From positions 731 to 64,730 of the IMG/VR virus record IMGVR_UViG_3300030101_003968: a stretch of DNA of 64,000 nucleotides, one strand, 5' to 3'. Of the stretch, positions 349 to 63,644 are shown piece after piece (the stretch's first letter is position 1; each line of letters starts with the position of its first letter). The translations under genes were made by a program, and so were the position numbers. The notes under the pieces are model-generated. The model was not told where the DNA came from, made no database searches, and worked only from the letters and a program-made list of their open reading frames with translations. Source of the DNA: a virus (lineage: Duplodnaviria; Caudoviricetes).

Positions 349-746
349 TTGAGTTTGATTTCGCAGTTGTTCTTGAAGTCCCAAATGGCTTCCTCTTCGC
401 GCTTCTTGCCTAAGGCGATAGCCTCTTCGCGGTCAAACACGATGTCGGAGACCTCGATGAAGGCGTAGTTGTCGTCGTTCACCCATGCACCGATTACCTG
501 CGTATAGGGATGTGGTTGAATTTGAAGCTGACGCTTCATGAACTCAATCAAGAGTTCCATCGTGTAGCTGAAGGCGTTGTAAGACAACAAGTTGTTGTCC
601 ACACATTCGACGGAATCCGCCGCTCCGCCCACTGCATACGCTTCCCGTGTGGGGCTGTAGCCGTTGAGGTCTTTGTCAACGGAGAATCCGTTGCCGCTCT
701 GCACGTTCAGGTAGCGCAGGAGCATAAGGTTGTCAATCATTTTCAT
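345..746 (-). CDS. hypothetical early phage protein (IGAW...IEVS...EAIALG...AIWD family)
   Basis: ORF track 345..782; likely start MKMIDN at 746, coupled to upstream stop. Confidence 0.7.
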   Translation of the reverse strand: MKMIDNLMLLRYLNVQSGNGFSVDKDLNGYSPTREAYAVGGAADSVECVDNNLLSYNAFSYTMELLIEFMKRQLQIQPHPYTQVIGAWVNDDNYAFIEVSDIVFDREEAIALGKKREEEAIWDFKNNCEIKLK

Positions 747-999: not shown

Positions 1000-1140
1000 T
1001 CAGCAGTCGATGAGGTCAGCCAAGGTCATCTGCTCGTCGCAGGTCAGCTCGTCCCACTCAGCCGTAGAGGTGAGGAGGTCGAAGTCGAACGAAGAGGTCA
1101 GGAGGTCAGCAATAAGCTGACGGCGTAAGTGCTTATCCAT
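1000..1140 (-). CDS. small acidic early protein (46 aa, MDKHLRRQLIADLLTSSFDFDLL...)
   Basis: Read manually; preceded by hairpin repeat and TCAAACTTCAA motif; stop lies 5 nt upstream of the ribozyme. Confidence 0.6.
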   Translation of the reverse strand: MDKHLRRQLIADLLTSSFDFDLLTSTAEWDELTCDEQMTLADLIDC

Positions 1141-1176
1141 AGGATTGGGGTTTGAAGTTTGACATTTTGAGTGGTT

Positions 1177-1232
1177 GTCTCTCTAACTACACACTCTTCA
1201 TAAATGAAGAGAGTGTGTAGTAAGAGATACTA
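1177..1232. repeat. 56-nt hairpin repeat, copy A (long bulged inverted repeat)
   Basis: gtctctctaactacacactcttcat-aa-atgaagagagtgtgtagtaagagatacta; 54/56 identical to 62660-62715. Confidence 0.9.
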
Positions 1233-1237
1233 ACCGA

Positions 1238-1738
1238 TTAGAAGGGAACATCGGTGCTAACTTCGTTAGCAGAAGTCAGAGACGTGGTCTCCATGTGCAG
1301 AGCCAAGCACTGCGTAAGAGCCTCAATCTTTGCTTCTAACGAAGCAATCTTGTCGTTATTGTCCGCCTCAGCTTTCAGCTGAGCTTTCTTGGCTGCTCTC
1401 TGAGCAGCTCCTGTGGCTACGCTGACAGCTTTGGCTGACTCAGCAGCTTCCTTAACGGAAGCTGTCTTAGCCTTCTTCGAAGGCTTGATTGGACCAACTT
1501 CGTTGGTCTTGAGTGCCGCTTTGTCTTGGCGGTCTGCCACCTTCTGTGAAGGTGTCCTCTTCGTCGTCTTACGACGACGCTTCTTCGCCTTCGGCTTGTC
1601 TTTAACCTCTTCGAGGTTAGAGACAATGTCCAAAGCTTCTTGCAAAGCTTTGATTGCGGCGGCTTTGCGCTGAGCGGTTGGACGGAAGAGAGCTTGGTTG
1701 ACCGCTTTCTTGCAGTCGGAGAATTGGAAGTTTGACAT
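1238..1738 (-). CDS. Lys/Ala-rich basic protein, probably first gene of the early operon (possibly DNA-binding)
   Basis: 166-aa ORF with KAKKRRRK and AAKKA tracts and a C-terminal coiled coil. Confidence 0.75.
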   Translation of the reverse strand: MSNFQFSDCKKAVNQALFRPTAQRKAAAIKALQEALDIVSNLEEVKDKPKAKKRRRKTTKRTPSQKVADRQDKAALKTNEVGPIKPSKKAKTASVKEAAESAKAVSVATGAAQRAAKKAQLKAEADNNDKIASLEAKIEALTQCLALHMETTSLTSANEVSTDVPF

Positions 1739-1794
1739 GAGATAATGTATTAAATGAAACTCATAGAGTTTCGTTTCATTTAATACATATCTCA
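1738..1794. repeat. long inverted repeat abutting the start codon of 1238..1738
   Basis: atgtattaaatgaaac (1745-1760) / gtttcatttaatacat (1773-1788) perfect 16 bp, plus tgagat/atctca. Confidence 0.85.
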
Positions 1795-22806: not shown

Positions 22807-22836
22807 GAGGGGGAGGAAACGGCCTCCCTCTCTTTT
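22807..22836 (+). terminator. intrinsic terminator
   Basis: gagggggagg-aaacgg-cctccctctc-tttt. Confidence 0.65.
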
Positions 22837-24556: not shown

Positions 24557-24577
24557 GACCGATTCTATACCAAAACG

Positions 24578-24604
24578 AAGGGCCAGCCTAGTGCTGGCCT
24601 TTTT
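24578..24604 (+). terminator. intrinsic terminator
   Basis: gaagggccagc-ctagt-gctggcc-ttttt. Confidence 0.75.
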
Positions 24605-29200: not shown

Positions 29201-29310
29201 CATCATTTAGAGACTCAAGTGAAGTTGGATCGCTAACTTCACGCCCTAAAAAGATTGTAAAAAAGTCTGCTAGTTCAAACAAGACGAAAAAAAGAGGCTA
29301 TGGCAAGTAA
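26221..29310 (+). CDS. tail protein: muzzle/stabilisation-type N-terminus fused to long acidic Ig-like region
   Basis: LNKE......D.LDAVNI...VKKIPG...LG.CVD...NRVFYF then about 900 aa acidic beta-rich sequence. Confidence 0.55.
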   Translation: MITNLRPRILNKESSPSVIKGTDMLDAVNIVADGLETSEQNTVKKIPGTIDVFFNDSDDAFLNTVLGVSVNKTAVVLGHCVDKERNRVFYFTSEYTAGSDTQSNGKIYMMEQFAPDEIKIVILGLISDILPEDFVAANIIRVPVLEEEYNLDENFGGVQEDQDTIIEFDDSVDVTDIQGEITVISTPNFPNLVVNPLEEAPSTTGFLTIQNTGGAIAYQTLFEFGEGINAEDPQDHSRIEMSIGQEALSELAPGDTFNLPITITTEGGVEAGTYEFFVTVISQNYTQVIPVQFALNIEVKTLVDPKFSISIQTSGPSSADYTYGENVTPSISLGPIEENSGIDSEATITFVREVTPDDEVSLPLGISFEIDTAQEALELSIGESDIAGSEVIMGGFEATLTDENTVAQFKIKLRDNNGPFENVVYDRTIQFSTSANLIAYPGFNSDGFSYEDIDVQIAVSVLEEVIVLPADIGTTGFNNQQFGLLPHLTNEENESELGVDAETLDGSSVTVTVGTIYNNGDEDGHFFLNLRGSTQGYGLEQLASLNKVGLRYKIGNVNSGDWKQMFSMTSIFNAVSGLDDGFPPGSDISLFSETLAGGNSQQLHIRIENIDDTCRAGVLDTIGETYEGDVILFENSWIGALGVLEMLRVEVHQIPSPDTNLTDVGSETYNNSGSTNPSVKGFMDIETIISTAEPIIGPTIVESRGRQTTAQLDSTGGGPLGGGLTTYYPKQFASIFTDPNQQLLDSIQANDGSVYSGSTDDGDGVGFAVANTSVAASGAADPTITISVSVTFQEPNFLGPFGSGFENHDPNPFQGTFGAVGSLGPVLVYTEPYLIGSQELTDFDSKDLSSYPFSAYNSSLAYGNNGDGHAEFGSCRQFFTTIPSSSVVFFAVKPEFSSYITFLQTPSSEYSYAFEDDHYGSFCGVNVNVNGNSTTLGNNTNRVVFPLTNEQWDWVHSQPDFGGAPPTPSRFDVDPTPSPLPFNDESIQQVVARPSFRDSSEVGSLTSRPKKIVKKSASSNKTKKRGYGK

Positions 29311-32300
29311 TACAGATAGAGCCAAGTTTGTAAACACGAACCCAAAAGAAAACACAATACTTGCGTTTACAAACGGAAGGGGAGAGCCTCGTGCCATAAA
29401 TGTAGAAAGGTGCATAGATGAGCTCGGTCAAATCCCGTCCCTTAACGCGATATCTCTTGACGAAACGGATCAAAACGATTTTAAATTTGCTTGCCCAAGA
29501 GTTCACTTGTTGCCAATTTCTTTTGAGTTTGATTTTGATCCAGATAAATCTTCTGGGAACTTTGAAAACACAGATGGATTTCAGTTTTCTTATCAAGTTG
29601 TTTACAAAAACGGATCTACGAGTGCCATTGCCCCGTACTCCGACGTTGCATATCCGCCAGCAATAATTAACCTTGGTCTCAAGACTTTGGCTGAGACTGA
29701 GGTAGAAAACAGGTGTGTGCTATTTATTCCCAAGCTGTCTGCAGAGGCCAAACTTATAAGGCTCATATCCAGAGAGGGGAATAACGACAATCCTAGGGTT
29801 ATAGATCAATTTAGAGTAGACGTACAGTCTAATGACTTCATAATTACCGATGACGATTTTCTTGGTCAGTACAGCTTTTACAATGACAAAATCGGTGCGC
29901 TTCTCTCTGAGATTGACGCTACAAAAACGTTTGATAACGTTCCTAGAAACGCTAAGGCTCAAACCGTCGCGGACAACAGGGTTATGTATGGAAACTATAC
30001 CGAGGGATACGCCAACATAACCACTGACGTAAACTTAAGTGTAGAATTTAAACAAGCACCGCCTCCTGGGTTTTCATTTGAGCTAAAGGCAGTTCCTTAC
30101 GTATTCAGAAAAAAAACAGATAAGGCTTCTGGAGAAGCTGGTTCGGCAGATCTTGGAAGACAGAGATTTAAAACAAACTCTGGTTTTGTACTGGATACAA
30201 GTGGGTTTCCCGAAAGCGTACCCGTGGGAGTTTACACAGTTTCTATAACTATTGCCCCTAAAAACAATTATCACATTTTTCTTGGAACGGGTGAATCCCC
30301 TAACTCTAGAGAAAATCCGATTGTTGGAGCTGGTCCTACCGCCTTAAGTGATTTTATTTTTAATCAATCTACAAGTGCTCTGGCGGGTTCGTCTGCTGCT
30401 CCCTCTAAGGTGATTAGAGGTAGAGAAATGGGTGCGGCATCTCAGTCCGACACAGCTGGACTTCCTGTTGACGGAGCTCTAAGAGCATCCTATTTTAACG
30501 GAGGTTACAACACAGCCTCAAGCGTGACTTGGGATTCAAGCAATGGAGACCTGCACCTTACGGATATAGGAAGGTCGTTTAGCTCTCCGCTCGTATTTAA
30601 GGGTGAACCAGTTACTTTTTCTACAACAATTCAAGTAAACTCATCCACTGAAAGGGATGTTTTTTCTAAGGCTCTCATTCATGGGCTTTGCGGATTGCAC
30701 CCTAACTCAAGCCCTATAGATGTATTCGGTTCTCAAGTAGCTCCCACATCTAGTCCTGCAAATTACTTTAAGGAGGTTGCCTATGATTTGGGCCTTAATG
30801 ATGACTCAACTTTTTCAGCAGAGGGAAGCTTCTTATCTGACCTTGTTTGTTCCGTTTCAAGCGGATATAACAACTCAGACGTATCTGGCGACATGTGCTC
30901 AAGAGAGCCAGATGGGTTTTTTGTAATCAATAAGGCCACGATGAGGTTTTGTGGTGAGCCAGCAAGGGGTTATGCTGGACAGATAGATGATCTTCTCTAT
31001 GAATATGATCAAGACAAAAGCGGATATGGAATGTTTATGTCTTTTGCTCATGCGAAGGATGTAAATGTAAAAACTGTTGTGCCTCTTCCAGAGGGTAAGT
31101 TTGGGTCAGCATCTAGTCCAGGTGCAGCTGCTCAGTCTTTCGAACTGTTTACTAACAATATAAATGGATCTAATGACGATGTAGTAAGAGCAAGAAGATT
31201 TTTTGCTATGGGAACTGGGGACTGGGACTACAGGGTTGATTCTAACGGAAACAATCAAATAATGTGGCCGTCTTGCTATAGGCAGTGGCAAACCCCAGAC
31301 GGCGCCCTAAATGGACCGTCTAGGATTCAAAACACAAACCCAGAAGATCTGCAAACCTATTTAGAGTCAGCTACAATAGATCAAGGGACTGTTGCTCTTT
31401 CTTCAAGTCAACCCGATCCAATGCCCGCTCCTGTATTACCAACAAGGCAATACGATGACGGTAAGATTTTTGAATCAAATGATTCCTTTAGAAATACGTT
31501 GTATCATCCAGCGCCTATAAAAAAATGGATTATTGCTGGCGACGAAAACAGCGAAGTATTACCTAGTGACAAATCAGACTCATACTGGAACACTATACAC
31601 GGTGGCGCGGGCTTTACAGTTAACATCGACGTGCCAAACGACTCGTTTGACAATGCCTTTCAAGATGCGGGTCAATTCTTCGTCGCGGGAAATCCATCAA
31701 CAATGCTGGGAGACATAAGTAAGCATTACTGTGGGTACCTTAAAAACTACAATAATGCTGGTTATTTTCAGTTCGGCAGAGATATTGAGTACACCGCCCC
31801 CCCTGACACCGTAAACGTTTCTAATTACTTAGATAGGGGAACTCTTTCGTTGGTTGATGGAGAGATGGGGCCTGGAGGTATGAACGGGTTAGCTGCATCT
31901 CAGTTTGGAAACAGATCTGATAACTCTTCATTTGGGCTTCCTTTTGTCATGGGAACCCACGACATTAACGGTGATACATCATCAAACGTGATGGGGTCCA
32001 TGGCAAACATACGTGGAACTGTTACAAATTTTGGGCTTTTAGGATATGTAGATAATTGCCCAGGATACCTTGTATCTGAAATTGTAGCTAGAACTCCAGA
32101 AACAGTAAACTCCAATTATAATGGAGCTTTTGTTTTAGGAAACAGCAGTGGAAGTTCTCAACTTGCTCAAAGCTTTGCTGTTGTAGTACCACAATATGCA
32201 GACGTTGGTTTTGCCTTAAATGATGTATTGCTGGGTGAGGCTCAGCCGCTTGGTGTTGTCTTTAGGTCTCCGCTGACAAGTGGATACTTTTCATCTTTTT

Positions 32301-35300
32301 ACTCCGACCCAGGGGCGCTTGTAAGTTGTATTGACACTAGAGATACTGCTGATATGGCGGGCACCATAGCTCAGGGTAATTACTTGAGCACAATTCAACC
32401 CGTTCAGACAAGGCAGCCTCCAGCGGGTTCAACTGGATCAGCAATAGTGGTTTCTGGGGCATCTATAAACACCTCTTCAGAAGAGCTTGGATACAACTCG
32501 TTTAAGACAAAAGCAAATCACGAATTTGGTATAGTTTACTATGACGAAAGGGGGAGACATGGGGCTGTTCAGCCCGTAGGCTCTGTATATGTGCCTGGAT
32601 ATGATACAGAAGACCGAGGCAGTTCCTTAAAGGGAGCAGCAAAAGTCAAAATGGAAATCAATCACGCTCCTCCCTCTTGGGCGACAGAATATAGGGTGGT
32701 TTACTCTGGAAACACTTCGGTTAGTGAATTTATTCAACATACCGTCGCTGACGCTTTTGTATCCTCAAAAGCTCCAGGCAGAATATACGTTTCTCTAAAT
32801 CACCTTCAGTCTAACAAGATTTCATACGCCGAGTCATACGGAGCAGTCAGCCTAGATGATGGCACCAAGTCGCTATACCGATTCAATCAGGGTGACAGAC
32901 TTAGGATTATAAACTATTCCAATGTGTCTGCGGAGCTAGAATATGCTCCAAAAGATTACGACTTTAGAATTGTTGATTTAGAGATAGTTGGTCCAGACAT
33001 GGACAATCACCCTTTTCCAAACGAGTCTGATCAGGCAAGATTTAATGGTGAGTTTTTGGTCTTGGAGGACAACAAAGAGGCTAGTGGGTTTAGGGTTGAA
33101 GACATTTTGGCTGACACCTCTGGTAACGTAACTAGTTTTTGGGGAAACAGATGCCTTGTAGAGATATACAGACCATCCAAGGGGCTTGGAGATGAGTCTA
33201 GGCCTTATTTCGAGCTTAATTATGGAGGAAAAATTTTAAGCGGTCCCACACATCAGTTCAACACTATCTTGATGACTAAGGGTGATGTTTTTTACAGAAG
33301 CGTACCCATGAACGCTCAAACTATAACTTCTGACGCATCTACAGAGCAGACTATTGGCGAGTACACTAGTCTTATTCAAGGAAGCACAGACAATGAAACA
33401 TCCGTGCCCAATCCTGTTTCGTATTACGTTGAGTCTGAAACAGTTACAGATTTATATAAGTCTGATGCAAAGAATTATGGGAGAGTGCATTTTGTAGACC
33501 GATTTGCCGATGAGGTAGAAAGGCCTTCTAGCATATCGTTTTCTGAAAAAACATTTCAGGGCTCTTACGATCTTAGATATTTCTCTTTTCCAAAAATAGG
33601 AAACTTCAAAGACCTTCCTAGGTACAGTGGAGGCATTGATGTGATGGACTTTCAGGGAACTAACATAATGAGTTTTAATGACTCAAAAGTATACTACATT
33701 CCAGTCTCTAGAGACGTCCTCACAACAGGCAATACGGATGCGATTGTCGCAAGTACAAAGGTGCTTGGGTCTGAAATAGCAATACCGATTGACGGGGGCT
33801 CATCAAAAAGACCTGAGTCGGTTATCTCTATTAACAACGACTTTTTCTTTTTTGATGAAAGGAATGAAAGAATAGTCATGATTAAAGGGGGTAGAACTCC
33901 AGTAATTGTTACAGACGCAAATGTTGATGCTTACTTCAAGTCTGAAGTTCAAAAATGGAAGCAAAGTGGTGCGTTCAAAGCACCCTCTGGGTACGACCCG
34001 ATGAGGTCAGAGTACTTAATATCTCTCTCTTCGCTGGAAGATGGCTACATATATCACGATCACGTCTCAGCAAGAGATCGAATGCTTACAATGGGGTTTG
34101 ACTTAAAGACGAATAAGTTCTGGAAGTCAAGGTATTCTTTTGCGCCTCACTTTTACTCTACCCTTAACGGAAAGCTAATTTCTTATCACTCAGAAAAAAC
34201 TCTAACTCACCCAAACACTGTTGGAGATGAAATAGAGTCTCCATTTGTTCTTCCGCAGATTCACAATGACACTTCAAAGAGGAATAAGATCTACGGAAAA
34301 AAAGTTAGATCCAGCCTATGTGTTTCTGCTAATGCCAACAACTCAAAAACAAAGGAATTTAACGTTGTTGTTTTGGATTCTGACAACAGGTGGGAGGCTA
34401 ACCTGTACACACCCACTGGGGCCTCTGCAATACCGTTTGGCAGGTTTAAGGGTTACAACGATAAGTACTACGGAAAAATTGTTGGAGACACCACCGTTGC
34501 GGCAGAACAAAGAAAGTCCCAGATAACAAAGAGAACAATTCAGACTATGCCCTATGCTTTTGACGAAAGGCTTATTCCGTCTACGGGGCAACTTCTTCAG
34601 TCTCAATTTTTGGGTCCAAGAGGGTTTACTTTTGTTGACGAAAATGGAGAGATTTATGGAGTTAATTCAACTGGAATTAAGTACATGGAGTTCCAAGTTG
34701 TTATGTCTAAGTCAAGCTCTGCGTTTACGGCTCCACTGGCCATTGGGAAAAACTCTATTCTTTATGAATCTTCACCTGGAGGATCTCAAATGGTTCCTTT
34801 GGGATCAGGACCTAAAAACACTCACTCTTTTAATAGAAAGGCGTTTATAGCTGCAGACACTGAAGACACGAACAGAACAAGAAAACTCGTAATAAGGGCT
34901 CCTTGGAATCAAGTTGAAAACTACTGCTTGCAAAACGGTCACGAAGACGTAATTGAAAGAGTTACTACTGATGAGTTTACTTCAAATCCGAGCGTAGTCT
35001 TCGGGTTCTTTACTTCTGTCAATAATGACGAAACAGGTTACAAGATATTTGATATAATTTTTGCCCCGTACTACTCCATGTTTTTTGGAAAATCTGTGCA
35101 ACAAGATGGGTCACTAAACAACCTGATAAGCCTTTTTGACGGTGAAGGCATTTTCAGTGGAGGCGATCAAGCTGAATATGTGTGGGACTTGAACGAAGAC
35201 GGCCTCGTTAATGTGAGCGACCTCTTGATATTCTTGACAGGGTTTGGAGAACCATTTGGAACAGAAGATTTGTTGGGCTTACTTGCGGAATTTGGTTCAG

Positions 35301-35566
35301 GCGTGGAAGATGAAAGCACAGTTGATTTTGATACTATAGGCTCTTTTACTGCCGCACAATTTTTAAATCTTTATAATGGTGAGCGAAAAGAAATTCACTC
35401 TGTGTATAGCAATCAGCTAAACGCTCCTGAGCTTACGGGCAGATACATGAAAATAGACCTTGTTTCAGACGACGCACAAGATGATGCTCAGTTGTATGAG
35501 ATTATGGTTGATCACGACAACAGAGTAAAGTCTCTTTCAAGAGGAACTAAATCGAAAAAGAAGTAA
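29300..35566 (+). CDS. large tail muzzle/stabilisation protein (P22 gp10 / crAss muzzle-like)
   Basis: 2088 aa; LAFTNG..EPR.IN, FQFSY..VY.NG, NR.MYGNY.EG, FGIVYYDERGR, GYDP...EY, W.SRYSF.P. Confidence 0.7.
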   Translation: MASNTDRAKFVNTNPKENTILAFTNGRGEPRAINVERCIDELGQIPSLNAISLDETDQNDFKFACPRVHLLPISFEFDFDPDKSSGNFENTDGFQFSYQVVYKNGSTSAIAPYSDVAYPPAIINLGLKTLAETEVENRCVLFIPKLSAEAKLIRLISREGNNDNPRVIDQFRVDVQSNDFIITDDDFLGQYSFYNDKIGALLSEIDATKTFDNVPRNAKAQTVADNRVMYGNYTEGYANITTDVNLSVEFKQAPPPGFSFELKAVPYVFRKKTDKASGEAGSADLGRQRFKTNSGFVLDTSGFPESVPVGVYTVSITIAPKNNYHIFLGTGESPNSRENPIVGAGPTALSDFIFNQSTSALAGSSAAPSKVIRGREMGAASQSDTAGLPVDGALRASYFNGGYNTASSVTWDSSNGDLHLTDIGRSFSSPLVFKGEPVTFSTTIQVNSSTERDVFSKALIHGLCGLHPNSSPIDVFGSQVAPTSSPANYFKEVAYDLGLNDDSTFSAEGSFLSDLVCSVSSGYNNSDVSGDMCSREPDGFFVINKATMRFCGEPARGYAGQIDDLLYEYDQDKSGYGMFMSFAHAKDVNVKTVVPLPEGKFGSASSPGAAAQSFELFTNNINGSNDDVVRARRFFAMGTGDWDYRVDSNGNNQIMWPSCYRQWQTPDGALNGPSRIQNTNPEDLQTYLESATIDQGTVALSSSQPDPMPAPVLPTRQYDDGKIFESNDSFRNTLYHPAPIKKWIIAGDENSEVLPSDKSDSYWNTIHGGAGFTVNIDVPNDSFDNAFQDAGQFFVAGNPSTMLGDISKHYCGYLKNYNNAGYFQFGRDIEYTAPPDTVNVSNYLDRGTLSLVDGEMGPGGMNGLAASQFGNRSDNSSFGLPFVMGTHDINGDTSSNVMGSMANIRGTVTNFGLLGYVDNCPGYLVSEIVARTPETVNSNYNGAFVLGNSSGSSQLAQSFAVVVPQYADVGFALNDVLLGEAQPLGVVFRSPLTSGYFSSFYSDPGALVSCIDTRDTADMAGTIAQGNYLSTIQPVQTRQPPAGSTGSAIVVSGASINTSSEELGYNSFKTKANHEFGIVYYDERGRHGAVQPVGSVYVPGYDTEDRGSSLKGAAKVKMEINHAPPSWATEYRVVYSGNTSVSEFIQHTVADAFVSSKAPGRIYVSLNHLQSNKISYAESYGAVSLDDGTKSLYRFNQGDRLRIINYSNVSAELEYAPKDYDFRIVDLEIVGPDMDNHPFPNESDQARFNGEFLVLEDNKEASGFRVEDILADTSGNVTSFWGNRCLVEIYRPSKGLGDESRPYFELNYGGKILSGPTHQFNTILMTKGDVFYRSVPMNAQTITSDASTEQTIGEYTSLIQGSTDNETSVPNPVSYYVESETVTDLYKSDAKNYGRVHFVDRFADEVERPSSISFSEKTFQGSYDLRYFSFPKIGNFKDLPRYSGGIDVMDFQGTNIMSFNDSKVYYIPVSRDVLTTGNTDAIVASTKVLGSEIAIPIDGGSSKRPESVISINNDFFFFDERNERIVMIKGGRTPVIVTDANVDAYFKSEVQKWKQSGAFKAPSGYDPMRSEYLISLSSLEDGYIYHDHVSARDRMLTMGFDLKTNKFWKSRYSFAPHFYSTLNGKLISYHSEKTLTHPNTVGDEIESPFVLPQIHNDTSKRNKIYGKKVRSSLCVSANANNSKTKEFNVVVLDSDNRWEANLYTPTGASAIPFGRFKGYNDKYYGKIVGDTTVAAEQRKSQITKRTIQTMPYAFDERLIPSTGQLLQSQFLGPRGFTFVDENGEIYGVNSTGIKYMEFQVVMSKSSSAFTAPLAIGKNSILYESSPGGSQMVPLGSGPKNTHSFNRKAFIAADTEDTNRTRKLVIRAPWNQVENYCLQNGHEDVIERVTTDEFTSNPSVVFGFFTSVNNDETGYKIFDIIFAPYYSMFFGKSVQQDGSLNNLISLFDGEGIFSGGDQAEYVWDLNEDGLVNVSDLLIFLTGFGEPFGTEDLLGLLAEFGSGVEDESTVDFDTIGSFTAAQFLNLYNGERKEIHSVYSNQLNAPELTGRYMKIDLVSDDAQDDAQLYEIMVDHDNRVKSLSRGTKSKKK

Positions 35567-38883: not shown

Positions 38884-41800
38884 ATGCCACTACGTTCAGG
38901 ATTTAGCTCGCCTCAGTCTGAGGTACAATCAATAATTGAAGACTACAGAAATCAGGGACTGCCAGACGAACAGCTTGAAAAAAGACTTTCGGAGGAGTTT
39001 GCCCCTGAGATGTGGGAACCGATTCTTCACCCCAAAGAAGAACCGAAGGATGACCTTGAGTCAAGACTCGTGTCTCAAATAGGGGAGAAGCCTGAACAGC
39101 CGTCGTTTCCTCAGGATATATACGACGAGTTTCAATATGACTTTAGGAACCCGCTGATTAAGCCATTGCCTCCGAAAGGAGGCTTTGTCACGACTGACGG
39201 TACGTACAACAAAAGTCTTGAGGCATATAACTCTCAGGCTGAAAAAAGAAACTTTAGAGCTAAGAAGCAGTCCGCTGTGTTTGAGCTCTACAACAATCAG
39301 GTAGATGAGTACAACTACAATGCTCAGGCCTGGAATGACGCAGCAGAGGATATTCTTGAGGACGAAAACAGGGAGTTTTACGAGTCCACAATCAAAATAG
39401 ACAAGTCTCTTGCTGCAATCACGCAGCTTCCAGAGAGGGTAAACCCCTACAGCTGGAAGTCAGCACTGGGGGAACAGCGCAATACAGGAAAGTTTTCTCC
39501 GCTGGACTTTGGCACACATATCTTCGCACAAAAGACTGATACTGACATTCATAACGAAATGCTCAGGGACGAAGGCTATTTAAGCGCCATGAAGAATCCC
39601 ATGGACGAAAGCTTCAACCTCGGATCGTCTGACTATCCTGTTCTTGTAAGCGGATCACCTGACGACGTTATGTCTCAGGTCAAGATGATTTACGACGAAC
39701 GAAACGACAAAAACTTTGCAAGTGACCCCGCTTTTGTGGCTGCCCTTAAAGAGAAGATGAAAAGAAAGGATTCGTACCGATCCGCATACATGAAAGAGTG
39801 GTTTTCTAAGTACGCTAAGGAGAACGTCTTTGACCTAAAGAATATGACCCCAGAGGAGATGGCTCAGGCAGAGCAAGACATCTTTGACGACACTGGGCTT
39901 TACATCAATCTTGACGGCAACAACACTGTTGGAGCCGCAAAGGAAGGCGACTTCTGGACCAACATGAGCGCGGCCACAATGAGGTTGAGAGCTACTGGCA
40001 ACAACGTCATGTTTGTGGCCAATGCCATGGGTAAGGCTCTTGACTTTGTGATGAGTGAAGACACCAAGAGTTACGAGCGCTATGACATTAGATTAGATGA
40101 GCTTAGGGATAGAAAAAATGAGCTCGAAAGGGCTGCCGAGGAGATAAGTCAGGGCATGACCAGATACTACATGACTCGCACCGAGGCTATGTTGGCTGGA
40201 GACGACTTGTCTTTGGACATAGACGATGTGGAGCAGGCAAGCATAATTACTGTCCTTAAGGGCTTTGTTGGTCTTGAAGATTCTTTCTCTAAAATGGAGA
40301 GGTTGGAGGCCCTTCAAAGCCTCCCTCAGTCTCAAACTGGGAACCTTATCGGTATGTTATTTGCTCTTGCAACCAGAGGTAAGGGCTCCAAGGCGGCTAA
40401 GGGAGTTACAGGACTTTTTAACTTTTTTGCAAAAACGTCACTGGGCGCCTCGGTGCCCATGGCAACCATGGTGGGTGCAGACAAGTTTGCAGAGATTTAC
40501 GACGATCCTTTCTTTTCAACCTTTACCGACTCCGAAGGACTTGAGGTGTCACCTATTGCTGCCCAGAGAATGCTTGAAGAGGCACAGTTATTTGGAAACT
40601 CAAACGCCACCTTTGAAAGCCTTGGGCTGACAAGAAATAGAAACGACGCTGCCATCCTTGGCTACACCACCGTTCACGCTGGAGGTGAAGCTGCAGGAGA
40701 GCTTGCTGGTGGTCTTTTATTCAAGGGATTTGGCAAGTACGCTACTGGCACACCCCTTGACAGAGCAGCAAAGAAAAGAATCGGTCAATACCTTGTGGGG
40801 ATGTTCTCCGCTGTGGGCATTAGCATGCCTGAAGAGTACCTCGAAGAAGCCATAACTGAGGCTATTCAGTACTCTGCAGAGCTTGGATTTGAGGACAGAG
40901 AGTTCAACATGGATGAGTTTGTTTCTCGGGTTCGCAAGGCTGGTCTGAGCGGGTTTACTATGGCTCCATTGATGGGGACAGCGACATCTGTTGTTGGGAC
41001 CGCAATGCAGGAGCGTCAGATACAGCAAATGAGTCCAGAGGAGTTCAACCTGTATCAGCTTCGATTTGCGTACAACAGTGAGTACGACAGGCTTGACAAG
41101 ACCGCTAGGGACATCATTGAGATGGAGCAGACTAGGGACGCATCTAACGACCCCTCGTTTGTTCAGCACATGAACGAGGAGATTGCTCAAAAAAGAAAAA
41201 CGCTCAAAAAGAATCAAAAGGCAAGGATGGATAAGGCCTTTGCTTTGCTCGAAAAGGATGCTCCTCTTGCAAACAAAATCATGCTGTCTGGTCAAAAGAT
41301 TTCTGGCCTTGCCAGCATGGTCAAGGAAGAAACCAATGAAGATATAAAGAAGATATACGAAGAGGAGCTAGAAAAGGCCATCGGAGAAAGAGCTCAGCTT
41401 GACGACGCAGTAGCCGAGGCTCTTAGGGAGCAGCGCACTATTGTTGTAAAAGACAGAGATGGAAACGACGTAAAAACATCGTTTACCGAGCGATCAGCCA
41501 CTACGGAGGAGAAGAGGGAGATGGAGGGTCTGAGCTCAGCCCAAAGGCCAAACGCAGAGGACGCTGCAGCACAAGACGAGCTCGACGAAGAGTTTGACCT
41601 TGATTACGATGCTGGTATGGAGGACGATCAAATCGTCATGCTTTCTGGCATGGACGGGGTCACCATGGAGCAGGGTAGCATTGACGAGTCCAAGATGCAG
41701 AAGGGGGTCATGGACTTCCTGAGAATGGTAGCCCCAGACCTAGCAAGCGAAGATCTCACTATCATCACTTACGGAAGTCAAAAGGCATACGAGGCTGATC

Positions 41801-44800
41801 CAGACATTGCTAGAGCAATGAGCAGGGACGGAGCGTCTCCACGCGCATACGCCGCAAGAAACGAAGAGGGCAAGATTACTAGAATTATAGTTGACCCAAG
41901 ATCTACAATCGGAGACGCCCAACACGAGGTGGGACACGTCGTCCTGAGAACCGTTTATGACAACCCTGTTCAAAGAACTGCTCTTGTTGAGAAGATTCTT
42001 GACATGGCCAACATAAAGGGCAACGAAACATTCAGGGCTTGGGTCAACTCCACCATTGACCTTTACAACTCGAACAGAGAACAGCTGGGCAAGGATGATG
42101 TGGCTCAGGAGGAGCTTATCCAAAACTTCTTCCAAGCATACGTATCTGGAGAGTGGAATGTATTCAATGACGCTGGGAAGCAAATAGAAGTTAAAAAGAA
42201 GGTTAGAGATAGAATCGCCGAAGGCTTTTGGGACTTCTTGGCTATTCGCAACCCATCTGTCAGGAGCCTTAACATCAAGGACACCGACGGACTTATTGCT
42301 GTTGCGAAGAAGTTTCAGCGTTTTGTTTCTGATCAGCCAAACTTTTCTCCGACTACAGAAAAAGTCGCAAGCCCAATGGAGCGGATGGGCAAGATGGTTG
42401 CGGCCCCAGAGCAGGAGCGCCCTGAGCCAAAGAAAGAAAAGCTTGACCCCGCCTCTCTTTTCAAAGAAAAACCAGCAGAACCTGCTGAAGAAGCACCAGC
42501 ATCCGAAGAGGCTAAGCCACAGGATGACCTTACTGAAACAGCAGTACCGACTCCAGTCATGGGACCGCGTCAGGACACTGAGTCTGAGGCTGATTACAGG
42601 GCAAGGTTGCAGAGGGAGGCAGATGAGATGCTAAAGGGCACGGAGGGCATCGAAACATCTGCAGAGGACGCGCTGTCTCAAGAGACAGAGGGCCTCAGAT
42701 CAAAGCAAAGAGGCAAAGACTTTGTAGCAGGAAAAACCATTAAGGCGGTTTACCTTAGAAACTACGACGCAAGAGTCTTTGAGCTGAAGGCAAAGGATTA
42801 CGGTCACTACAGAAACTGGGTCGCAAAAATTACTGGAAACGGATCGCAGCCATTTGATCGCATTTCATATCAGAAAGAAGACGGTTCTTTTGCTGATCTT
42901 CGCGCACCAAAGCCTGTTTACAACAGGGATGGAACCCTTAGGCAGATGAGACCAGTGGACATCAGAACCTTTAAAATGAGGTTTATAGAGTCTCGCAATG
43001 CTATTCTGCAAGCAAGAACCGATGCTAAGGTGTCCAACACGAAAAGACTCACAAGACTTAGAGATCTCGCAAGAGAAAATAACATCAATCTTGACGAGTA
43101 CTTTGATTACAACTACGGCAACTACACGCTGTCTAACCTTGAGTACGCCGAGGTGCAGATTCTTTCAAGGATTTCAGAAGAGCCAGGAACCACACACGAC
43201 ATTGGGATTATTGGCCCCAATCTCGATGCCACTGGAAGAATAAGCTCCAGAGACCCACTTCCAAAAGACCTTGAGATTTACAACAAGGGAAGGGAGCTTG
43301 GATACAGATCCAAGAGAAGGAAGGTAGAGGGAGTTGGTACGCACACTACCTCCTTTAGCGAAAGAAGCGCTATAGAGCAGGGTGTTTTAACCAGAGTTAA
43401 AAACATTGATGAGTTTAGAAGTGAGCTAACAAGGCTTACTGGCGACGGAAGCATTTTTGCGATGATCGCAAAGTACGCCCCTACGTCATACGGCACAGCC
43501 ACGTTTGAGGTTGGAGGAAAAAAGGTTAAGGTCCCTGTAAAGAGCGGTGTTTACACTCCTGTTGTAGACTACTTCGATTTTATGAAAAAGAACGGCAGAG
43601 CACCATCTCCTTCTGAGATTAGCGCAATCACCAATACCAACAGCGGAAAGCAGTCGGAAGTGTTTGACGCCATCAAGGAGAGGGCTATGAGGTTTGCCGA
43701 CAACGACAAGCAATCAGTCATCTTCATCAAAAACCTTGGCGCAGAAAATCCCGCAGGAGATCCAGGAATCTTTGAGGCAGCATTTAAGATTATTGATGCA
43801 GCCATAGAGAGCTCGTCTAACCCAGGCGTAGCCGTGGAAATGGTTGTTGATTCCATCAACAAAATCATGGCGAAGACTTACAAGTCAAAGCTAAGCATCG
43901 GTGGCGGTGAAAAAATTGCCATAGACAAGGAAAACGGCAGAACACTGTTCCAAAGACTTTCAGATAAAGAGATCAAGGGTAGCGGTCTTTACGATCAGGA
44001 CGGATCCCTCAGGCTCAACAGAGCGGAGCCTGAACTTGCGTACAAAAACTTTAAGAAGTTTTTCGTTGATCAAAAGTCAAACAAGATTGGCTTTGAAATA
44101 AGAAAGCCGCTTCTTCTTAAGCTGCTGAATAGCAAGCACTTAGGAAGCACAGAAAGCAAGGAGTACTTGACCCTTCCTTCGTCCAAAGAATTTTTGGATC
44201 TCGTTAGCTCAGAAGAGCACCTCAACACAAGCTCTGCTACGGGCGATATCATTGGCGCAGTAATTGTTGACAATGCTGCCGCAAAGCTCAAGACTGAGGA
44301 CCCGTCTACGGGTAAACCCTACCTATATGGTGTAACTGGATTTAAGGGGCTTGTCATGTTTGATGAGTTTGCTACAGAAGCAAAGGTTCAGGAGATGATG
44401 ATTGCCAGAAACCCAGAAAGATACACTGGTGGTATTGGCGCTCAGGCTTCAGGGCTCGCGGGGCTTATGTCCAAGCGCAGGGCTGGACGCATCTACCACC
44501 ATGGCGCAGGTCAGTGGGAAAAGTCCACCAGCAACATGTTTGGAAACGCCCTTTCTGCTATTGCACTGAAGTTTCAGGACAAGTACTTTGATGTCATCAT
44601 GCTTCAGAGCGATGTAGAAAACTACAAGAAGCAAAGAGTAGAGGCTGGGCAAGACTTTGACCTTGCGCTCGACCTCATGTACGGAAAGACAAGAGATAAC
44701 CTTGAGTCCCTTGAAACTACCTTGGACATGATTAAGGATCTGATGGCTCAGTCTGAGATTACATCAGATCAACTTTCGGACTACCTCTACGCTAAGCATG

Positions 44801-52389: not shown

Positions 52390-52776
52390 ATGCCAGGGCA
52401 TTACAAAAAAAATGTATTTCCCTTGTTTATGGACGACAGGGAGCCAGTTCAGGTCATTGACTCTGCTGGTACAGACAAAGAATGGAACAAGAGAACAAGC
52501 AGGGTTCTCATCAACCCTTCCCCAGCAGGAGCTGTAAAGATCAAGCTCGGCAAGCCAGAGACTCCTGGGATCATGGTCGAGGTCGGTAAGGACACTGGAA
52601 ACTTCTCTTGCATCGTAGTCCTTGGGGATTCTACTGATCCATACGGACCATTTAACAATGACGCTGACTTCAGAGAGGTCCAGCTTCAGTACGCGGGAAG
52701 CACTGAAGCCTCTGTGTTCACATGCTTCTGGAACGGAGAGAACTGGGTTCCGATTGGCTTAACTGCAACTGTGTAA
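52390..52776 (+). CDS. hypothetical protein, paralog of 22423..22791
   Basis: KKNVFP N-terminus, FWNGENW C-terminus; TATATTTG box at 52368-52375. Confidence 0.65.
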   Translation: MPGHYKKNVFPLFMDDREPVQVIDSAGTDKEWNKRTSRVLINPSPAGAVKIKLGKPETPGIMVEVGKDTGNFSCIVVLGDSTDPYGPFNNDADFREVQLQYAGSTEASVFTCFWNGENWVPIGLTATV

Positions 52777-52779
52777 GTT

Positions 52780-53358
52780 ATGGCTAAGAAAAACGTATTT
52801 CCATTTGTCGAGTCTGGACTCAAGGTCGTAGACAACGACGTCATCACTGGCCTAGGACCTGCGTCGGATATTGTTTTAGCCGCTTTCAATGCCAACGAAG
52901 ACAAAAATGTTGAGTGGTTTATTAGCTCAGACGGCAAAGAGGGGGCTGCACAGATGTACCCAGACAAAAAAGATCATGAGATTCTTTTTGACTTTAATCA
53001 GATTCCCAGTGATGTCTACTCAGAAATCGATATAACGATCGGTGACAAGATTCTGCAAATCTTCCATGGTAGCAACCGCGCGGATGGGGATAGTGGTGAG
53101 ATTGATGTTGACGCTAAACTTATCCCAGGATCTATTTTTTGTATAGGAGTAAAAAATAAAAAAGCAGGCTATTTAATTAGGAATTTCCTTCTTTATTCTG
53201 AAACCATACCTCCAAACTTGGACGACCTTCAATACCCGTTTCGTTCTAGAAACCTTATTCCAGGCCTTAACAATGGAGTTATAGATGTTGGAAACTGGCT
53301 TACTTATATGTTTGACGGCAAAAGACTTGTCTTTTTAGGTTCTAACAACTGGGTTTAA
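52780..53358 (+). CDS. hypothetical protein (KKNVFP family)
   Basis: Shares KKNVFP N-terminus; C-terminal YMFDGKRL. Confidence 0.65.
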   Translation: MAKKNVFPFVESGLKVVDNDVITGLGPASDIVLAAFNANEDKNVEWFISSDGKEGAAQMYPDKKDHEILFDFNQIPSDVYSEIDITIGDKILQIFHGSNRADGDSGEIDVDAKLIPGSIFCIGVKNKKAGYLIRNFLLYSETIPPNLDDLQYPFRSRNLIPGLNNGVIDVGNWLTYMFDGKRLVFLGSNNWV

Positions 53359-53577: not shown

Positions 53578-54081
53578 TCAATATCTTTGATCGTATTCCC
53601 AGACTCGGTAAGACATTAACCCCTTGAGATCGTGTAACTTAAGGATAGAGATGACATCTTCGCGTCCCTTTCGGGTGTACTTTCTTAGGTACGCATTCTT
53701 CTTGTCTGTCACTTTTTCGTCACGTACATGCTTCTCACAAAAAAAGGCGAGTTCATCTCGATCTACGATCGCGAACCCACCTTCTTCAGGCATATCAAAA
53801 GCAATAATGGTTGCACCCCCATAGAGCCAACCATCATTTCCTCTTACATTCTTAAATTCTACCCAAACCTCATCAGGAAGGTTGTTGCCCTTCACATCTA
53901 CACCCCAGTGCTTGCCGTCATGATTCATGGCAAGCCAGTAATCCACATGATCGTGGATGTCTTGTTTGGCCGTCGCCTTGGTTACGAGCAAGCCCTTGTT
54001 TCTTGCTGCCCTGACAAATCTAACCTCAGCCATGCGTCCTGTAGCATTGCTGTATGCTCTTCGCTTAGGACTCGTGCTCAT
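53578..54081 (-). CDS. PD-(D/E)XK-family nuclease-like protein
   Basis: G..AE..F...HVDYW...VDVKG...WVEFKNV.G..GWLYG. Confidence 0.6.
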   Translation of the reverse strand: MSTSPKRRAYSNATGRMAEVRFVRAARNKGLLVTKATAKQDIHDHVDYWLAMNHDGKHWGVDVKGNNLPDEVWVEFKNVRGNDGWLYGGATIIAFDMPEEGGFAIVDRDELAFFCEKHVRDEKVTDKKNAYLRKYTRKGREDVISILKLHDLKGLMSYRVWEYDQRY

Positions 54082-54274
54082 CTACGGCACTTCTTATAAG
54101 GTCTATCTCGTGCCAGATTAGCGTCTTTACATCACCCAATGCCTTTTCCACCTCGTCAGACGTTTCTACTGGCCCTCCAAACTCGTCATGAACCGCTTCA
54201 TACAGATCGTCTACGATTTGATGGATGCGGTCACATGCCAGGTAGTAGTAGGAGCTCAGTTTAGATTTCTCCAT
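54065..54274 (-). CDS. hypothetical protein
   Basis: 69-aa ORF, coupled overlaps. Confidence 0.55.
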   Translation of the reverse strand: MEKSKLSSYYYLACDRIHQIVDDLYEAVHDEFGGPVETSDEVEKALGDVKTLIWHEIDLIRSAVDEHES

Positions 54275-54722
54275 CTTTGATTGATTTTAGGATTTCCTGA
54301 ATAGCATGATCTACTTGACCGCTGTTCTTGGCTAAAAATACAATCGTTTTTGCCTGATTTCCAACTAAATGGCGCAAAAAAAGCTTCCACCTCATTGGAA
54401 AGTCATGATGAGACGGTAGATATCCCTTTGTTTCTATAATCCAATCGTGGTCTCTGCCCACAAAGTCAGGCTTGTAAGTGATAGGGAGGACGACAGATCC
54501 AGATCGGTCTGTCATCTCCTTACCTTTTGCAGTCATCTTGAAATACTTGTTGGGGAACCTGAATCGGTCCATCAACTCGAACTGATGTTCCTCATAGTCG
54601 AAAGCTAACCCGTATTCTTTTAACTGATCCGCGCAGTACTTCTCAAGACTGCTTGCGTAACGGCCTAGCTGTTTTTTTCGGGAAGAACGACGTTTGGTTG
54701 TCCGTGCCTTTTGTTTCTTCAC
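54261..54722 (-). CDS. T7 endonuclease I-like resolvase
   Basis: YASSLE...FDYEE...TYKPDF...IIETKG. Confidence 0.75.
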   Translation of the reverse strand: MKKQKARTTKRRSSRKKQLGRYASSLEKYCADQLKEYGLAFDYEEHQFELMDRFRFPNKYFKMTAKGKEMTDRSGSVVLPITYKPDFVGRDHDWIIETKGYLPSHHDFPMRWKLFLRHLVGNQAKTIVFLAKNSGQVDHAIQEILKSIKDGEI

Positions 54723-57421: not shown

Positions 57422-58192
57422 TTATACAATAAATTCTGCATAGTGTTTGTCTGATTGTCTGTCGCCATCGAGCCATGCGTTGATGTTCTCTACGGCTTCG
57501 TGAAACTTCATCTCTCCTTTAAAGAGAGTTTCTTCTGAGCACTTGACGTCGGCAGGGAAGTATGGGAATGTCTTCTCTTGCACGACCCAGTAGAAGTCTT
57601 TGATGTCAAAGACCTTGGTGTAAATGTACGCTTGGATGTCATAGCTCCAACCGCTTACGTCCCACTTAAACTTGTTAATACCACGGGAAGACTTGGAGTC
57701 AATGATGCAATCGTCTTGCAGGCAGTCCAAGAATCCCTTCAATGGAATGCCATCTAGGTCAACATTGAACTCTACCTGATACTTGCCTCCAGCAAATCGC
57801 TTGTCATACAAGCCACTCACCTTCAGACGCTCGATCATCTCTTCCGCTGTTTTCCACTCCTCCGTGCTGACCAGTTCCTTGTCCGCGTTCTGCGTTGTCT
57901 GGAGTGCTTCCGCTTTCCATTCACGGTACTTCTTCGTATTTCTAGGATTGCGGCCACCAATAGTAGCGACGATATCAGAATCGTCAAGGCAATAGAAGCG
58001 GTCTCTAACATTGTCTGGTTCAAATAGCATCATGTCATACAATGAGCCAAAGGTCAGAGCCTGTGACTCCTTCTTGAGTTGTCCTCGCATGTACATTTCC
58101 CAGAGACGCATGTCTCCGAGTGCATACTTGAGAGAGGAGTAAGAGAGGTGGGGCTTGCCCACGCTCTCCGTCAACCTGTCGCGCATGTTCAT
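57422..58192 (-). CDS. RecE/DUF3799-like PD-(D/E)XK exonuclease
   Basis: LSYSSLK...FGS......E...KGFLD...IIDSKS...Y.IQAY.Y. Confidence 0.75.
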   Translation of the reverse strand: MNMRDRLTESVGKPHLSYSSLKYALGDMRLWEMYMRGQLKKESQALTFGSLYDMMLFEPDNVRDRFYCLDDSDIVATIGGRNPRNTKKYREWKAEALQTTQNADKELVSTEEWKTAEEMIERLKVSGLYDKRFAGGKYQVEFNVDLDGIPLKGFLDCLQDDCIIDSKSSRGINKFKWDVSGWSYDIQAYIYTKVFDIKDFYWVVQEKTFPYFPADVKCSEETLFKGEMKFHEAVENINAWLDGDRQSDKHYAEFIV

Positions 58193-61829: not shown

Positions 61830-62396
61830 TTAGTTTTTGGGTTTGGGGATACGGAAAGCGTGCATTGAGTAGTCGTCTACGTCGATGAATGCGTGGTTAC
61901 CCATGTACACACTATGGATGAAATCTGTCAGTTGTTCAAGGTTGTCGATGGCATCCGTGGTGGTGTCCATCACATCGGAGGACACACGAGCTACCAAGGA
62001 CATACACAAGGGGGTGTAGTCCCATGCTTGGTCAGCTTCGAGTTGGTCCCACGTCAACCAACATGACTCGGTGGAGTCAGAGCGGTTGGACATATCAAGC
62101 TCGATGATTCGGAAAACCTCGACACTAACGTCGTCTCCGTTCTCTGCCACCCAGTCGTCGTGCTCCATGTCGAAGGGGACACAAGCGTGGTAGTCCTCGT
62201 AGTCACGAGTGAGGGTGACGTAGATGTCAAGCTCTCGGTGGTCGATGTTGACACACATCCTGTCCTGTCGGTAGTCCTTGAGTATGTCAAGGATGTGCTT
62301 GTCTGCAAGCCCCCGCTTGGGGAAGAACTCACAGGTGGTGTCGGAGTAGCCTTCAAAGAGGCCAGCTACCGCATGGATTACTGCGTACTGCTTCAT
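61830..62396 (-). CDS. hypothetical acidic early protein
   Basis: 188-aa ORF. Confidence 0.65.
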   Translation of the reverse strand: MKQYAVIHAVAGLFEGYSDTTCEFFPKRGLADKHILDILKDYRQDRMCVNIDHRELDIYVTLTRDYEDYHACVPFDMEHDDWVAENGDDVSVEVFRIIELDMSNRSDSTESCWLTWDQLEADQAWDYTPLCMSLVARVSSDVMDTTTDAIDNLEQLTDFIHSVYMGNHAFIDVDDYSMHAFRIPKPKN

Positions 62397-62620
62397 GATG
62401 AGAAAGGATTATTGTAAGTTTTTTCGATGATGAGGTCAGATGCCTCGTCGATGTTAGACAGGAGTGTGGCAAGGGGAGTCCTGCACTCGTGAACCCCTGA
62501 TACGTCTTTGCAACAGGCGTCCATCAGATTCAGGTTTAGATACTGAATGATGTGGTTGACCTTACCCAAGTCCTCTTGGATAGCTTCGGCAAGTTGCCGT
62601 GTGTTCATGTCTTGTAGCAT
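62393..62620 (-). CDS. hypothetical early protein
   Basis: 75-aa ORF preceded by TCAAACTTCAA motif. Confidence 0.6.
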   Translation of the reverse strand: MLQDMNTRQLAEAIQEDLGKVNHIIQYLNLNLMDACCKDVSGVHECRTPLATLLSNIDEASDLIIEKTYNNPFSS

Positions 62621-62659
62621 GATGGATTGAATTGAAGTTTGAAATTTGAAGTCGTATAA

Positions 62660-62715
62660 GTCTCTCTAACTATACACTCTTCATAAATGAAGAGAGTGTA
62701 TAGTAAGAGATACTA
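62660..62715. repeat. 56-nt hairpin repeat, copy B
   Basis: Identical to 1177-1232 except one compensatory pair. Confidence 0.9.
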
Positions 62716-62717
62716 GA

Positions 62718-62776
62718 TGGAGATGTTGAAGGAATCGAACCTTCGAGGATAACCTCCCTAATCCATAGGAACACCT
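62718..62776 (-). ncRNA. 59-nt miniature tRNA-like cloverleaf ending in CCA
   Basis: AGGUGUU CCUA-UGGAU-UAGG GAGG-UUAU-CCUC GAAGG-UUCGAUU-CCUUC AACAUCU CCA. Confidence 0.7.
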
Positions 62777-62902: not shown

Positions 62903-62911
62903 GAAAGAGTC

Positions 62912-63561: not shown

Positions 63562-63603
63562 TGGTATTGGATTTGAAGTTTGAAAATGTTGTTGAGAGGT
63601 GTT

Positions 63604-63644
63604 GTATATATCTCTCTTCACTACGTTCAGAGAGAGATATATAC
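63604..63644. repeat. 14-bp inverted repeat related to the 56-nt hairpin family
   Basis: gtatatatctctct / agagagatatatac; shares ctcttca...gagag...atacta with copies A and B. Confidence 0.75.

Follow-up and report, generated by a model that had tools for sequence, protein, structure and literature searches.

Two copies of a 56-nt hairpin lie near opposite ends of the window, the 64,000-nt stretch of phage DNA analysed here, each of them ahead of a small gene on the minus strand. Why a phage should keep such an element in several places, which of its properties are kept, and whether it works in the transcript or in the DNA are the questions raised by this locus. The virus record from which the window is taken has 64,730 bp; the window runs from its base 731 to base 64730, so that the first 730 bases are omitted.

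The duplicated hairpin and its genomic setting

Alignment and a repeat finder gave an identity of 54/56 for the two copies, here called A and B (Table 1). The differences are C at 1190 against T at 62673 and G at 1217 against A at 62700. Positions 1190 and 1217 are partners in the predicted stem, copy A having a C-G pair where copy B has a T-A pair; the first-pass annotation of this DNA had described these two differences, and alignment, repeat finder and fold all bear it out. The predicted fold of copy A has an energy of -32.0 kcal/mol and that of copy B one of -26.4 kcal/mol, with z-scores of -4.4 to -7.1, and 0/200 shuffles folded as well, on either strand and for both copies. In the 56-nt hairpin 22 pairs are formed, with a 2-nt bulge and with single mismatches at two internal places; the earlier count of about 22 bp and a 2-nt bulge stands, and its single mismatch has to be corrected to two. 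Including the flanks, the stem comprises 25 pairs, and the loop is 4 nt long.

A third near-identical copy of the 56-mer is found in the record outside the window. Bases 6-79 of the record are an exact repeat of its last 74 bases (64657-64730; window 63927-64000), which makes the ends of the window adjacent on a circular or permuted map; the record is classed as linear, and the assembly is probably circular. Because the record ends overlap, all copies lie in one contiguous minus-strand early block, which supports the earlier proposal of a single early module that spans both window ends on a circular map. Scanning the entire record at the chosen score gave five hairpins, those listed in Table 1, all within one early block of ~3.9 kb. 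The duplication is not an assembly artefact, a concern that the first-pass annotation had raised, as the independent contig L007 has the same three-copy arrangement.

The genes of the early block are small, lie on the minus strand and continue gap-free into replication and recombination genes. Inside this minus-strand early and middle block, two plus-strand genes (52390-53358) have a host-type box of their own (52368). Directly upstream of copy B lies a structured non-coding stretch (62716-62995, minus strand; 6633-7175 in L007) with two tRNA-like T-arm motifs (GGTTCGAnTCC), which is conserved in relatives, including a longer version of ~540 nt. ARAGORN and Rfam called no tRNA or other family in this stretch, which we regard as a candidate phage ncRNA whose 3' end would abut the hairpin. 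The divergent early and late blocks are separated by a non-coding region of ~650 nt (1790-2438) that contains many small hairpins and several blocks conserved in distant relatives. One run's contig (X20) matches this region alone, at high depth. An early promoter was not identified in the region, which might serve as a regulatory hub or an origin, or encode an ncRNA.

Table 1. Hairpins, leaders, genes and promoter boxes of the early block and its surroundings (window coordinates unless stated otherwise).
Feature	Position	Strand	Remarks
F1 hairpin, copy A (C-G variant)	1177..1232	(-)	covariance model (CM) R1 85.1 bits; between gene V (stop 1238-1240) and gene X (ATG 1140)
F1 hairpin, copy B (U-A variant)	62660..62715	(-)	CM R1 91 bits; 3' of structured non-coding stretch, 5' of gene Z (ATG 62620)
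Third near-identical 56-mer	record bases 517-572		outside the window
F2 hairpin	63604..63644	(-)	apical loop CUGAACGUAGUGA; before gene with ATG 63562-63564
F3 hairpin	1745..1788	(-)	directly upstream of gene V (ATG 1738)
Leader of copy A	1141..1176	(-)	nearly G-free; TCAAACTTCAAA at 1151-1162, 10 nt before ATG
Leader of copy B	62621..62659	(-)	nearly G-free; TCAAACTTCAAT at 62631-62642
Leader behind F2 hairpin	63565..63603	(-)	TCAAACTTCAAA at 63572-63583
Gene V, first early gene	1238..1738	(-)	166 aa, Lys/Ala-rich, basic, no family match
Gene X	1006..1140	(-)	44 aa
Gene Z	62393..62620	(-)	75 aa
Primase-helicase	54755-56551		early-block continuation
PDDEXK exonuclease	57422-58192		early-block continuation
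Lysis, packaging and virion genes	2439 to ~51,600	(+)	including terminase and portal
TAnnTTTG boxes, often TATATTTGCA	2405, 4793, 13544, 17467, 18525, 22839, 23692, 35564, 38872, 52368	(+)	

Conservation of the stem-loop and leader

On the transcribed strand the elements follow one another in the order stop codon, a few bases, UUAG, lower stem, apex, lower stem, UUAC, leader and ATG, and the invariant apex reads ACACUCU-CU-UCA-UUUA-UGA-AGAGUGU. The exact 26-nt apical core was found in 20 stretches in 19 other IMG/VR contigs, and a 24-nt version in at least 111 metagenome stretches; the runs that hold this DNA are labelled marine or estuary metagenomes. Altogether at least 177 copies were collected in at least 135 loci, with up to five per 5 kb. 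The apical core had 0 matches in the genomes of 185,579 prokaryote species. Among 50,697 GenBank phage records there was no DNA similar to the window ends or the hairpin, for which three chance-level short matches (E ~4) were returned, so no cultured carrier was found. No Rfam family matched the hairpins at the gathering threshold, which tRNA-Arg alone passes in the window; their sub-threshold matches, to plastid 3'UTR and miRNA-precursor models, were at chance level.

A co-oriented open reading frame (ATG start, at least 40 codons) begins 23-61 nt past the core in 106 of 107 testable distinct copies, another ends no more than 60 nt upstream in 96 of 112 distinct copies, and all copies share one strand in 23/23 multi-copy loci. 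Typically the hairpin stands a few bases past a stop codon and ~35 nt ahead of the next ATG. The gap between hairpin and ATG measures 22-39 nt and is nearly G-free, the G content of the leader being 1.7%, and the stem has a G+C content of 31-39%. When copies were sought with a lower-stem query that ignored the apex, the 26-nt core was exact in 10/14, had one loop change in 3 and one stem change in 1; the invariance of the apex is thus not merely a product of the search.

Leaders in this genome and its close relatives carry TCAAACTTCAAA ~10 nt before the ATG, and within one mismatch this motif has 9 matches in the window against 0.95 expected. More distant carriers have C/A-rich leaders that lack it. 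Four leaders of the present genome (1141-1176, 62621-62659, 63565-63603 and 917-960) are built from ACT(T)CAA heptads, two or three in each. Some copies have an ATG in front of TCAAACTTC; the coding sequence of gene V (MSNF...) begins in the same way, a resemblance which suggests that duplication of a gene start may have given rise to the leader. The leader motif was also considered as the mark of a conserved upstream mini-ORF, an idea given up because only some copies have the ATG. A different, short G/C-rich hairpin, ACACCCC-TT-GGGGTGT, stands at 940-960 before the leader motif of a gene starting at 916, and a similar CCCCTTAACGGGG hairpin is found in relatives upstream of gene V.

The genes behind the cassette are not the same everywhere. 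An F1 hairpin precedes gene X in the present genome (G000) and in L007, L009, L011, L015, L017, L020 and L024. Behind hairpin and leader, G000 and L007 have gene Z; it is absent from L005, L018 and L023, where gene W comes directly after them; in L010 another gene does so. A conserved, orientation-bound cassette of hairpin and unstructured leader, placed where early genes differ between genomes, is secure.

Covariation was assessed in 28 distinct copies aligned to the covariance model, and it should be noted that this alignment is fitted to the model. Cells expected to pair do so in 94.1% of cases. Changes on both sides of a pair affect 13/25 pairs (58 cells), one-sided changes amount to 2/693 cells, and 0/500 shuffles reach the observed values; the conservation of pairing that had been read from a single compensated pair, thin evidence by itself, is borne out by this larger sample. 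Sliding the partners by 1-3 columns brought pairing down to 24-53%, and an ungapped alignment of 15 rows pointed in the same direction. The pair that distinguishes copies A and B is a fixed difference between paralogues: it is C-G in the copy before gene X (G000, L007 and L015) and U-A before genes Y and Z/W. At orthologous positions in more distant contigs the hairpin is kept with quite different lower stems.

Wobble pairs are missing from this history. An outward walk from the core over 93 distinct copies, which were ascertained by the core alone and not by the lower stem, found the lower stems to contain 1228 Watson-Crick pairs and 0 G-U. Mismatches recur at the same places, with U.U at step 7 and either A.A or A.G at steps 12-13, the 2-nt bulge does not vary, and sporadic C.A oppositions were met twice only. 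One of these two copies, L100, joins the 5' arm of the C-G variant to the 3' arm of the U-A variant and, from its sequence, looks like the product of a crossover within the loop. For 41 distinct hairpins drawn from all families, neither strand is favoured in folding (mean difference +0.3 kcal/mol), and G-U accounts for 4/960 predicted pairs in this set, which was found by a Watson-Crick-only scan. That the cassette is kept by selection on pairing, on its fixed irregularities and on its apical sequence is secure. The element is asymmetric and tied to one orientation, and it keeps pairing and not sequence; for these reasons we rejected the possibility that it is an operator bound by a dimeric protein.

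Hairpins of other sequence occupy equivalent positions. The hairpin at 63604-63644, which the first-pass annotation had listed as a degenerate third member, is real (-29.1 kcal/mol, z -6.5) and equivalent in position, and it belongs to a separate, distantly related family, F2. Orthologues with compensated stems exist in L007, L010, L016, L017, L020 and L023. Covariance model R1, built on F1, did not reach the F2 hairpin of the window at E<=1; it gave E 0.002-0.009 for the orthologues in L007, L010 and L017 and weak matches to F2 members overall (E 1e-7 to 0.01), and to judge from these similarities F1 and F2 are probably related. F3 likewise has orthologues with compensated stems in many relatives. 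Among 27 distinct regions upstream of gene V, ascertained by coding sequence alone, 26 contain a long hairpin, namely 12 of F3, 6 of F1 and 8 of a further type, the three families being unrelated to one another. The position therefore calls for a long hairpin and for no particular sequence.

The closest named relative, by terminase, is the freshwater podophage MW202828 (L025; 48% identity), followed by Flavobacterium elemo phages (41%) and Cellulophaga phages (33-37%). In MW202828 the palindrome GTGTCGTTAACGACAC occurs in 7/12 early gaps between 44476 and 49906; it is 16 nt long with a 6-7-bp stem and a 4-nt loop, stands directly behind a stop codon and before an A/C-rich leader, and is a short-stem analogue of the cassette. 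The cultured relative Flavobacterium phage elemoF_6-3D, which has the same genome layout, showed no early-gap hairpins: its first 32 kb hold only 2 hairpins of at least 9 bp, both elsewhere. The terminase shares ~24% identity with those of crAss-like phages over part of the protein. A 2088-aa protein (29300-35566) has homologues that carry the crAss muzzle-protein domains PF25729 and PF25731. Taken together, this muzzle-like protein and the weak terminase similarity link the phage group distantly to Crassvirales.

Signals, enzymes and the readings of the cassette

The element TAnnTTTG is the -7 element of Bacteroidota sigma-A, as described in PMC9723704. Exact boxes of this form stand 5-27 nt before 10 plus-strand gene starts, whereas the minus-strand block of ~15 kb has three exact boxes only (2014-2021, 63164-63171 and 54015-54022). 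Between any hairpin and its ATG there is neither a TAnnTTTG box nor a sigma-70-type match. The region upstream of gene V, compared in 12 genomes, yielded no conserved promoter box: six scattered candidates with 0-1 mismatch lie in non-homologous places, and the exact box of this genome at 2014-2021 is not conserved. Downstream of its stem the early hairpin has no U-tract and passes into UUAC and the C/A-rich leader. The late operon, for its part, has GC-rich hairpins with T-tracts at 22807-22832 and 24577-24603, each then followed by a promoter box; a terminator scan listed these and did not list the early hairpins. The earlier statement that the 56-mer is not a standard terminator is accordingly upheld, and the late genes use host signals that the early block lacks. 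From the missing promoters in the hairpin gaps and the gap-free genes downstream we infer that the block is largely co-transcribed and that the hairpins have a polycistronic context.

In one metatranscriptome run, contigs of relatives cross hairpin A and the F3 hairpin, and one metatranscriptome contig contains an F1 hairpin with both flanks. This is a weak hint of read-through, the evidence being contigs only, from a library that may contain DNA. Assemblies are expected to break at the centre of a hairpin, which accounts for contigs that end there, and no weight was given to uncovered stretches, to a 0.06 share of an RNA run, or to the run guessed to be RNA (X20).

Enzymes that might act on the hairpin were sought. 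Pfam and PHROGs searches of the 60-odd ORFs recognised no RNA polymerase, integrase or Y1 transposase, and a six-frame search with Y1_Tnp found none, its control being positive in 10/14 genomes. In the search for a T7-type RNA polymerase the PF00940 control gave no signal, so that search has no bearing either way, and virion-borne RNA polymerases are very divergent. A phage RNase III was looked for and not found, and no RNA-binding family was recognised in the early proteins. A DxDxD-type motif occurs once in each giant protein, at unsupported positions. The giant proteins had no match in the PDB with phmmer, a 22-sequence profile of the 2801-aa protein found nothing there below E 0.2, and PHROGs assigned the giant proteins to unknown giant families and to 'virion structural protein'. 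In the Atlas the 2801-aa protein has polyvalent-protein neighbours only. This polyvalent protein (38884-47289) contains an LPD38 domain, a near-invariant HExxH and a strongly conserved C-terminal part of ~900 aa, and has at least 2890 relatives of 1.5-4.9 kaa, none with a solved relative. A small protein encoded at 54261-54722 (minus strand) shows weak matches to the T7 endonuclease I and Holliday-junction resolvase families; an enzyme of that type would cut extruded cruciforms.

The reading that we tentatively prefer, with a probability of about 0.42, is that the 56-mer and its leader form a cassette placed between cistrons of the early operon; such a cassette would serve as a signal for transcript processing, stability or insulation and as a gene-swap site. 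Stem-loop and nearly G-free leader would form the spacer between the small genes that head the minus-strand early operon, with the stem-loop acting in the folded early transcript. Its helix of about two turns (22-25 bp), with fixed mismatches and bulge, would offer the shape of a host RNase III substrate; failing cleavage, it might stop 3' exonucleases or attenuate read-through. The operon would in this way yield several messages, each stable and translatable on its own, and the unstructured leader would remain accessible, in a Bacteroidota host, to initiation that does not depend on a Shine-Dalgarno site. Since hairpin and leader stay the same next to differing genes, the cassette may also be a place of early gene gain, loss or exchange. 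According to PMC3867540, the idealised RNase III substrate is a 22-bp helix of two turns, and mismatches or bulges limit cutting to one strand, leaving stabilising 3' ends. By analogy, an interrupted two-turn helix that lacks a U-tract and stands between cistrons of an operon free of internal promoters would resemble both RNase III sites and protective 3' hairpins. Two observations count against the transcript: the apex is near-invariant, which RNase III does not demand, and the 6-7-bp palindrome of MW202828 is too short for that enzyme.

A third difficulty comes from the pairs themselves. Five early intercistronic hairpins of T7, folded for comparison and taken by us to be the named RNase III R sites (the gaps were taken from the T7 record), contain 13 G-U among 59 pairs, and their sense strand is 1.9-11.5 kcal/mol more stable than the complementary strand. 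With 0 G-U pairs and equal strand stability, unlike the T7 sites, the present family is missing the signature expected of an RNA strand, and a hairpin that acts at the DNA level therefore stays a serious rival. Such a hairpin, single-stranded or extruded, would work as DNA and be read by its shape, either as an N4-like promoter for a system other than sigma-A or as a folded recombination site of attC or REP type that turns the early region into an array of exchangeable gene cassettes; we hold this to be doubtful. In a stricter version, which we think unlikely, the hairpins of this crAss-related group of marine Bacteroidota podophages would be shape-read DNA signals and the encoded RNA incidental; they would be either promoters for an unrecognised non-host system of early transcription or folded recombination sites in an integron-like array of early-gene cassettes that has no integrase. 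Strictly Watson-Crick covariation would suit such signals, as would the conserved extrahelical bases and mismatches, and the distribution of host-type boxes, present before plus-strand genes, absent from the hairpin gaps and not conserved at gene V, fits as well. The first early gene, too, is preceded by a hairpin, and the hairpins of MW202828, found in the same places, are close to N4 promoters in size. N4 vRNAP reads its promoters mainly by DNA secondary structure, as set out in PMC13492108, and a crAss-like virion RNA polymerase is described as transcribing single-stranded DNA, with early transcripts that have no common promoter motif (10.1101/2020.03.07.982082). The present phage is distantly crAss-related by TerL and the muzzle-like protein. 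Against all this stand the failure to recognise an RNA polymerase, integrase or Y1 transposase, and the 2-nt bulge with two or three mismatches, which disfavours cruciform extrusion. N4 promoters have a stem of 5-7 bp, not 25, and a loop of 3 nt. attC sites show the reverse of the present pattern, with a conserved stem base and a variable apex. The RNA-library contigs that cross the hairpins weigh weakly in the same direction.

The invariant apical stem, bulge and loop might instead be a site for a phage protein on the early transcript, an antiterminator of the lambda N/boxB kind or a translational regulator, in which case the long lower stem would merely present the site. The apical 24-26 nt are kept across contigs with diverged flanking genes while the lower stem varies freely, each genome has 3-5 copies ahead of recurring genes X, Y and Z/W, and the product of gene V, in our own reading of its translation, is very basic with an arginine/lysine run. 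At the same positions in other genomes, however, stand F2, F3 and F4 with unrelated apices, so no single apex is required. With no RNA-binding family in any early protein and the absence of wobble pairs from the lower stem left unexplained, we judge a protein site improbable.

A factor-independent terminator or attenuator that has no U-tract and lowers read-through stepwise along the early operon appears very improbable, despite its place directly behind stop codons, its high stability (-26 to -32 kcal/mol) and the termination reported for PeSL stem-loops in a similar position (PMC2839356), given the missing U-tract, the classical terminators for host polymerase in the phage's own late operon, the 11 kb of gap-free essential genes that follow with no restart promoter and, weakly, the RNA-library contigs across the hairpins.

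Comparison with known systems

Among known elements, the early RNase III sites of T7 (R0.3, R0.5, R1, R1.1 and R1.3) are close to the cassette as a putative transcript signal. Both consist of several co-oriented hairpins per genome in early gaps, on one long transcript, with no U-tract, with sequence common to the copies and with helices interrupted by internal loops, and the two-turn intercistronic helix of such a site is present here in 22-25 pairs with mismatches and a bulge. The upper stems of the T7 sites, in contrast, measure 9-13 bp and have conserved G-U pairs, whereas the stems described here have 22-25 bp, are purely Watson-Crick and are strand-symmetric.

On the DNA reading, the promoters P1-P3 of coliphage N4 would resemble the hairpins in being shape-read DNA stem-loops upstream of early genes that have no host promoters, and PMC13492108 describes a conserved -11G together with recognition by hairpin shape. 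N4 has three promoters with short stems, a specific -11G and a virion polymerase of 3500 aa; here the stems are of 25 bp with 4-nt loops, they stand in most of the early gaps, and the searches gave no candidate for a polymerase. Elements of the attC and REP type are imperfect palindromes behind promoterless, co-oriented small genes, in which pairing is kept and extrahelical bases are conserved. The family described here likewise keeps its pairing while sequence varies, has conserved extrahelical bases and follows co-oriented small genes. It differs from them in the conserved apex, in the lack of a recognised integrase or Y1 transposase, and in a core that is absent from the prokaryote genomes searched.

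The PeSL (promoter-early stem-loop) elements of T4-type phages are a close counterpart as a cassette. As described in PMC2839356 and PMC4122927, PeSL is a conserved intergenic unit of ~100 bp that reaches from stop codon to ATG and is based on a stem-loop; it flanks small orphan early genes and marks their gain, loss or exchange, with crossovers even inside the loop. Here, too, a conserved unit of about that length and extent, with a stem-loop, is repeated in the gaps between small early genes, different genes (Z or W) stand behind the same hairpin and leader, and a copy with hybrid arms, L100, is found. PeSL differs in its strong host sigma-70 promoter, Shine-Dalgarno site and G/C-rich terminating stem-loop, where the present cassette has no host-type promoter box, a long A/U-rich stem and a G-free leader.

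A literature search and Rfam gave no description of this hairpin variant, which we consider new in combining the absence of promoter and U-tract with a G-free leader, an apex that does not vary and a stem that evolves through Watson-Crick pairs only, with no wobble intermediates, and in its abundance in marine metagenomes. Stems that evolve free of wobble pairs offer a clean test case for telling RNA-level from DNA-level selection on a hairpin. Should the DNA reading be true, the family would represent an unrecognised start of early transcription, or a means of early-gene shuffling, in crAss-related phages. Repeated stem-loop cassettes between small early genes, as in the R sites of T7 and the PeSLs of T4, are a recurring phage design that shapes how early genes are expressed and how host-takeover genes turn over, and the family described here adds to its known range a marine group that is abundant, uncultured and related to phages of Flavobacteriia.
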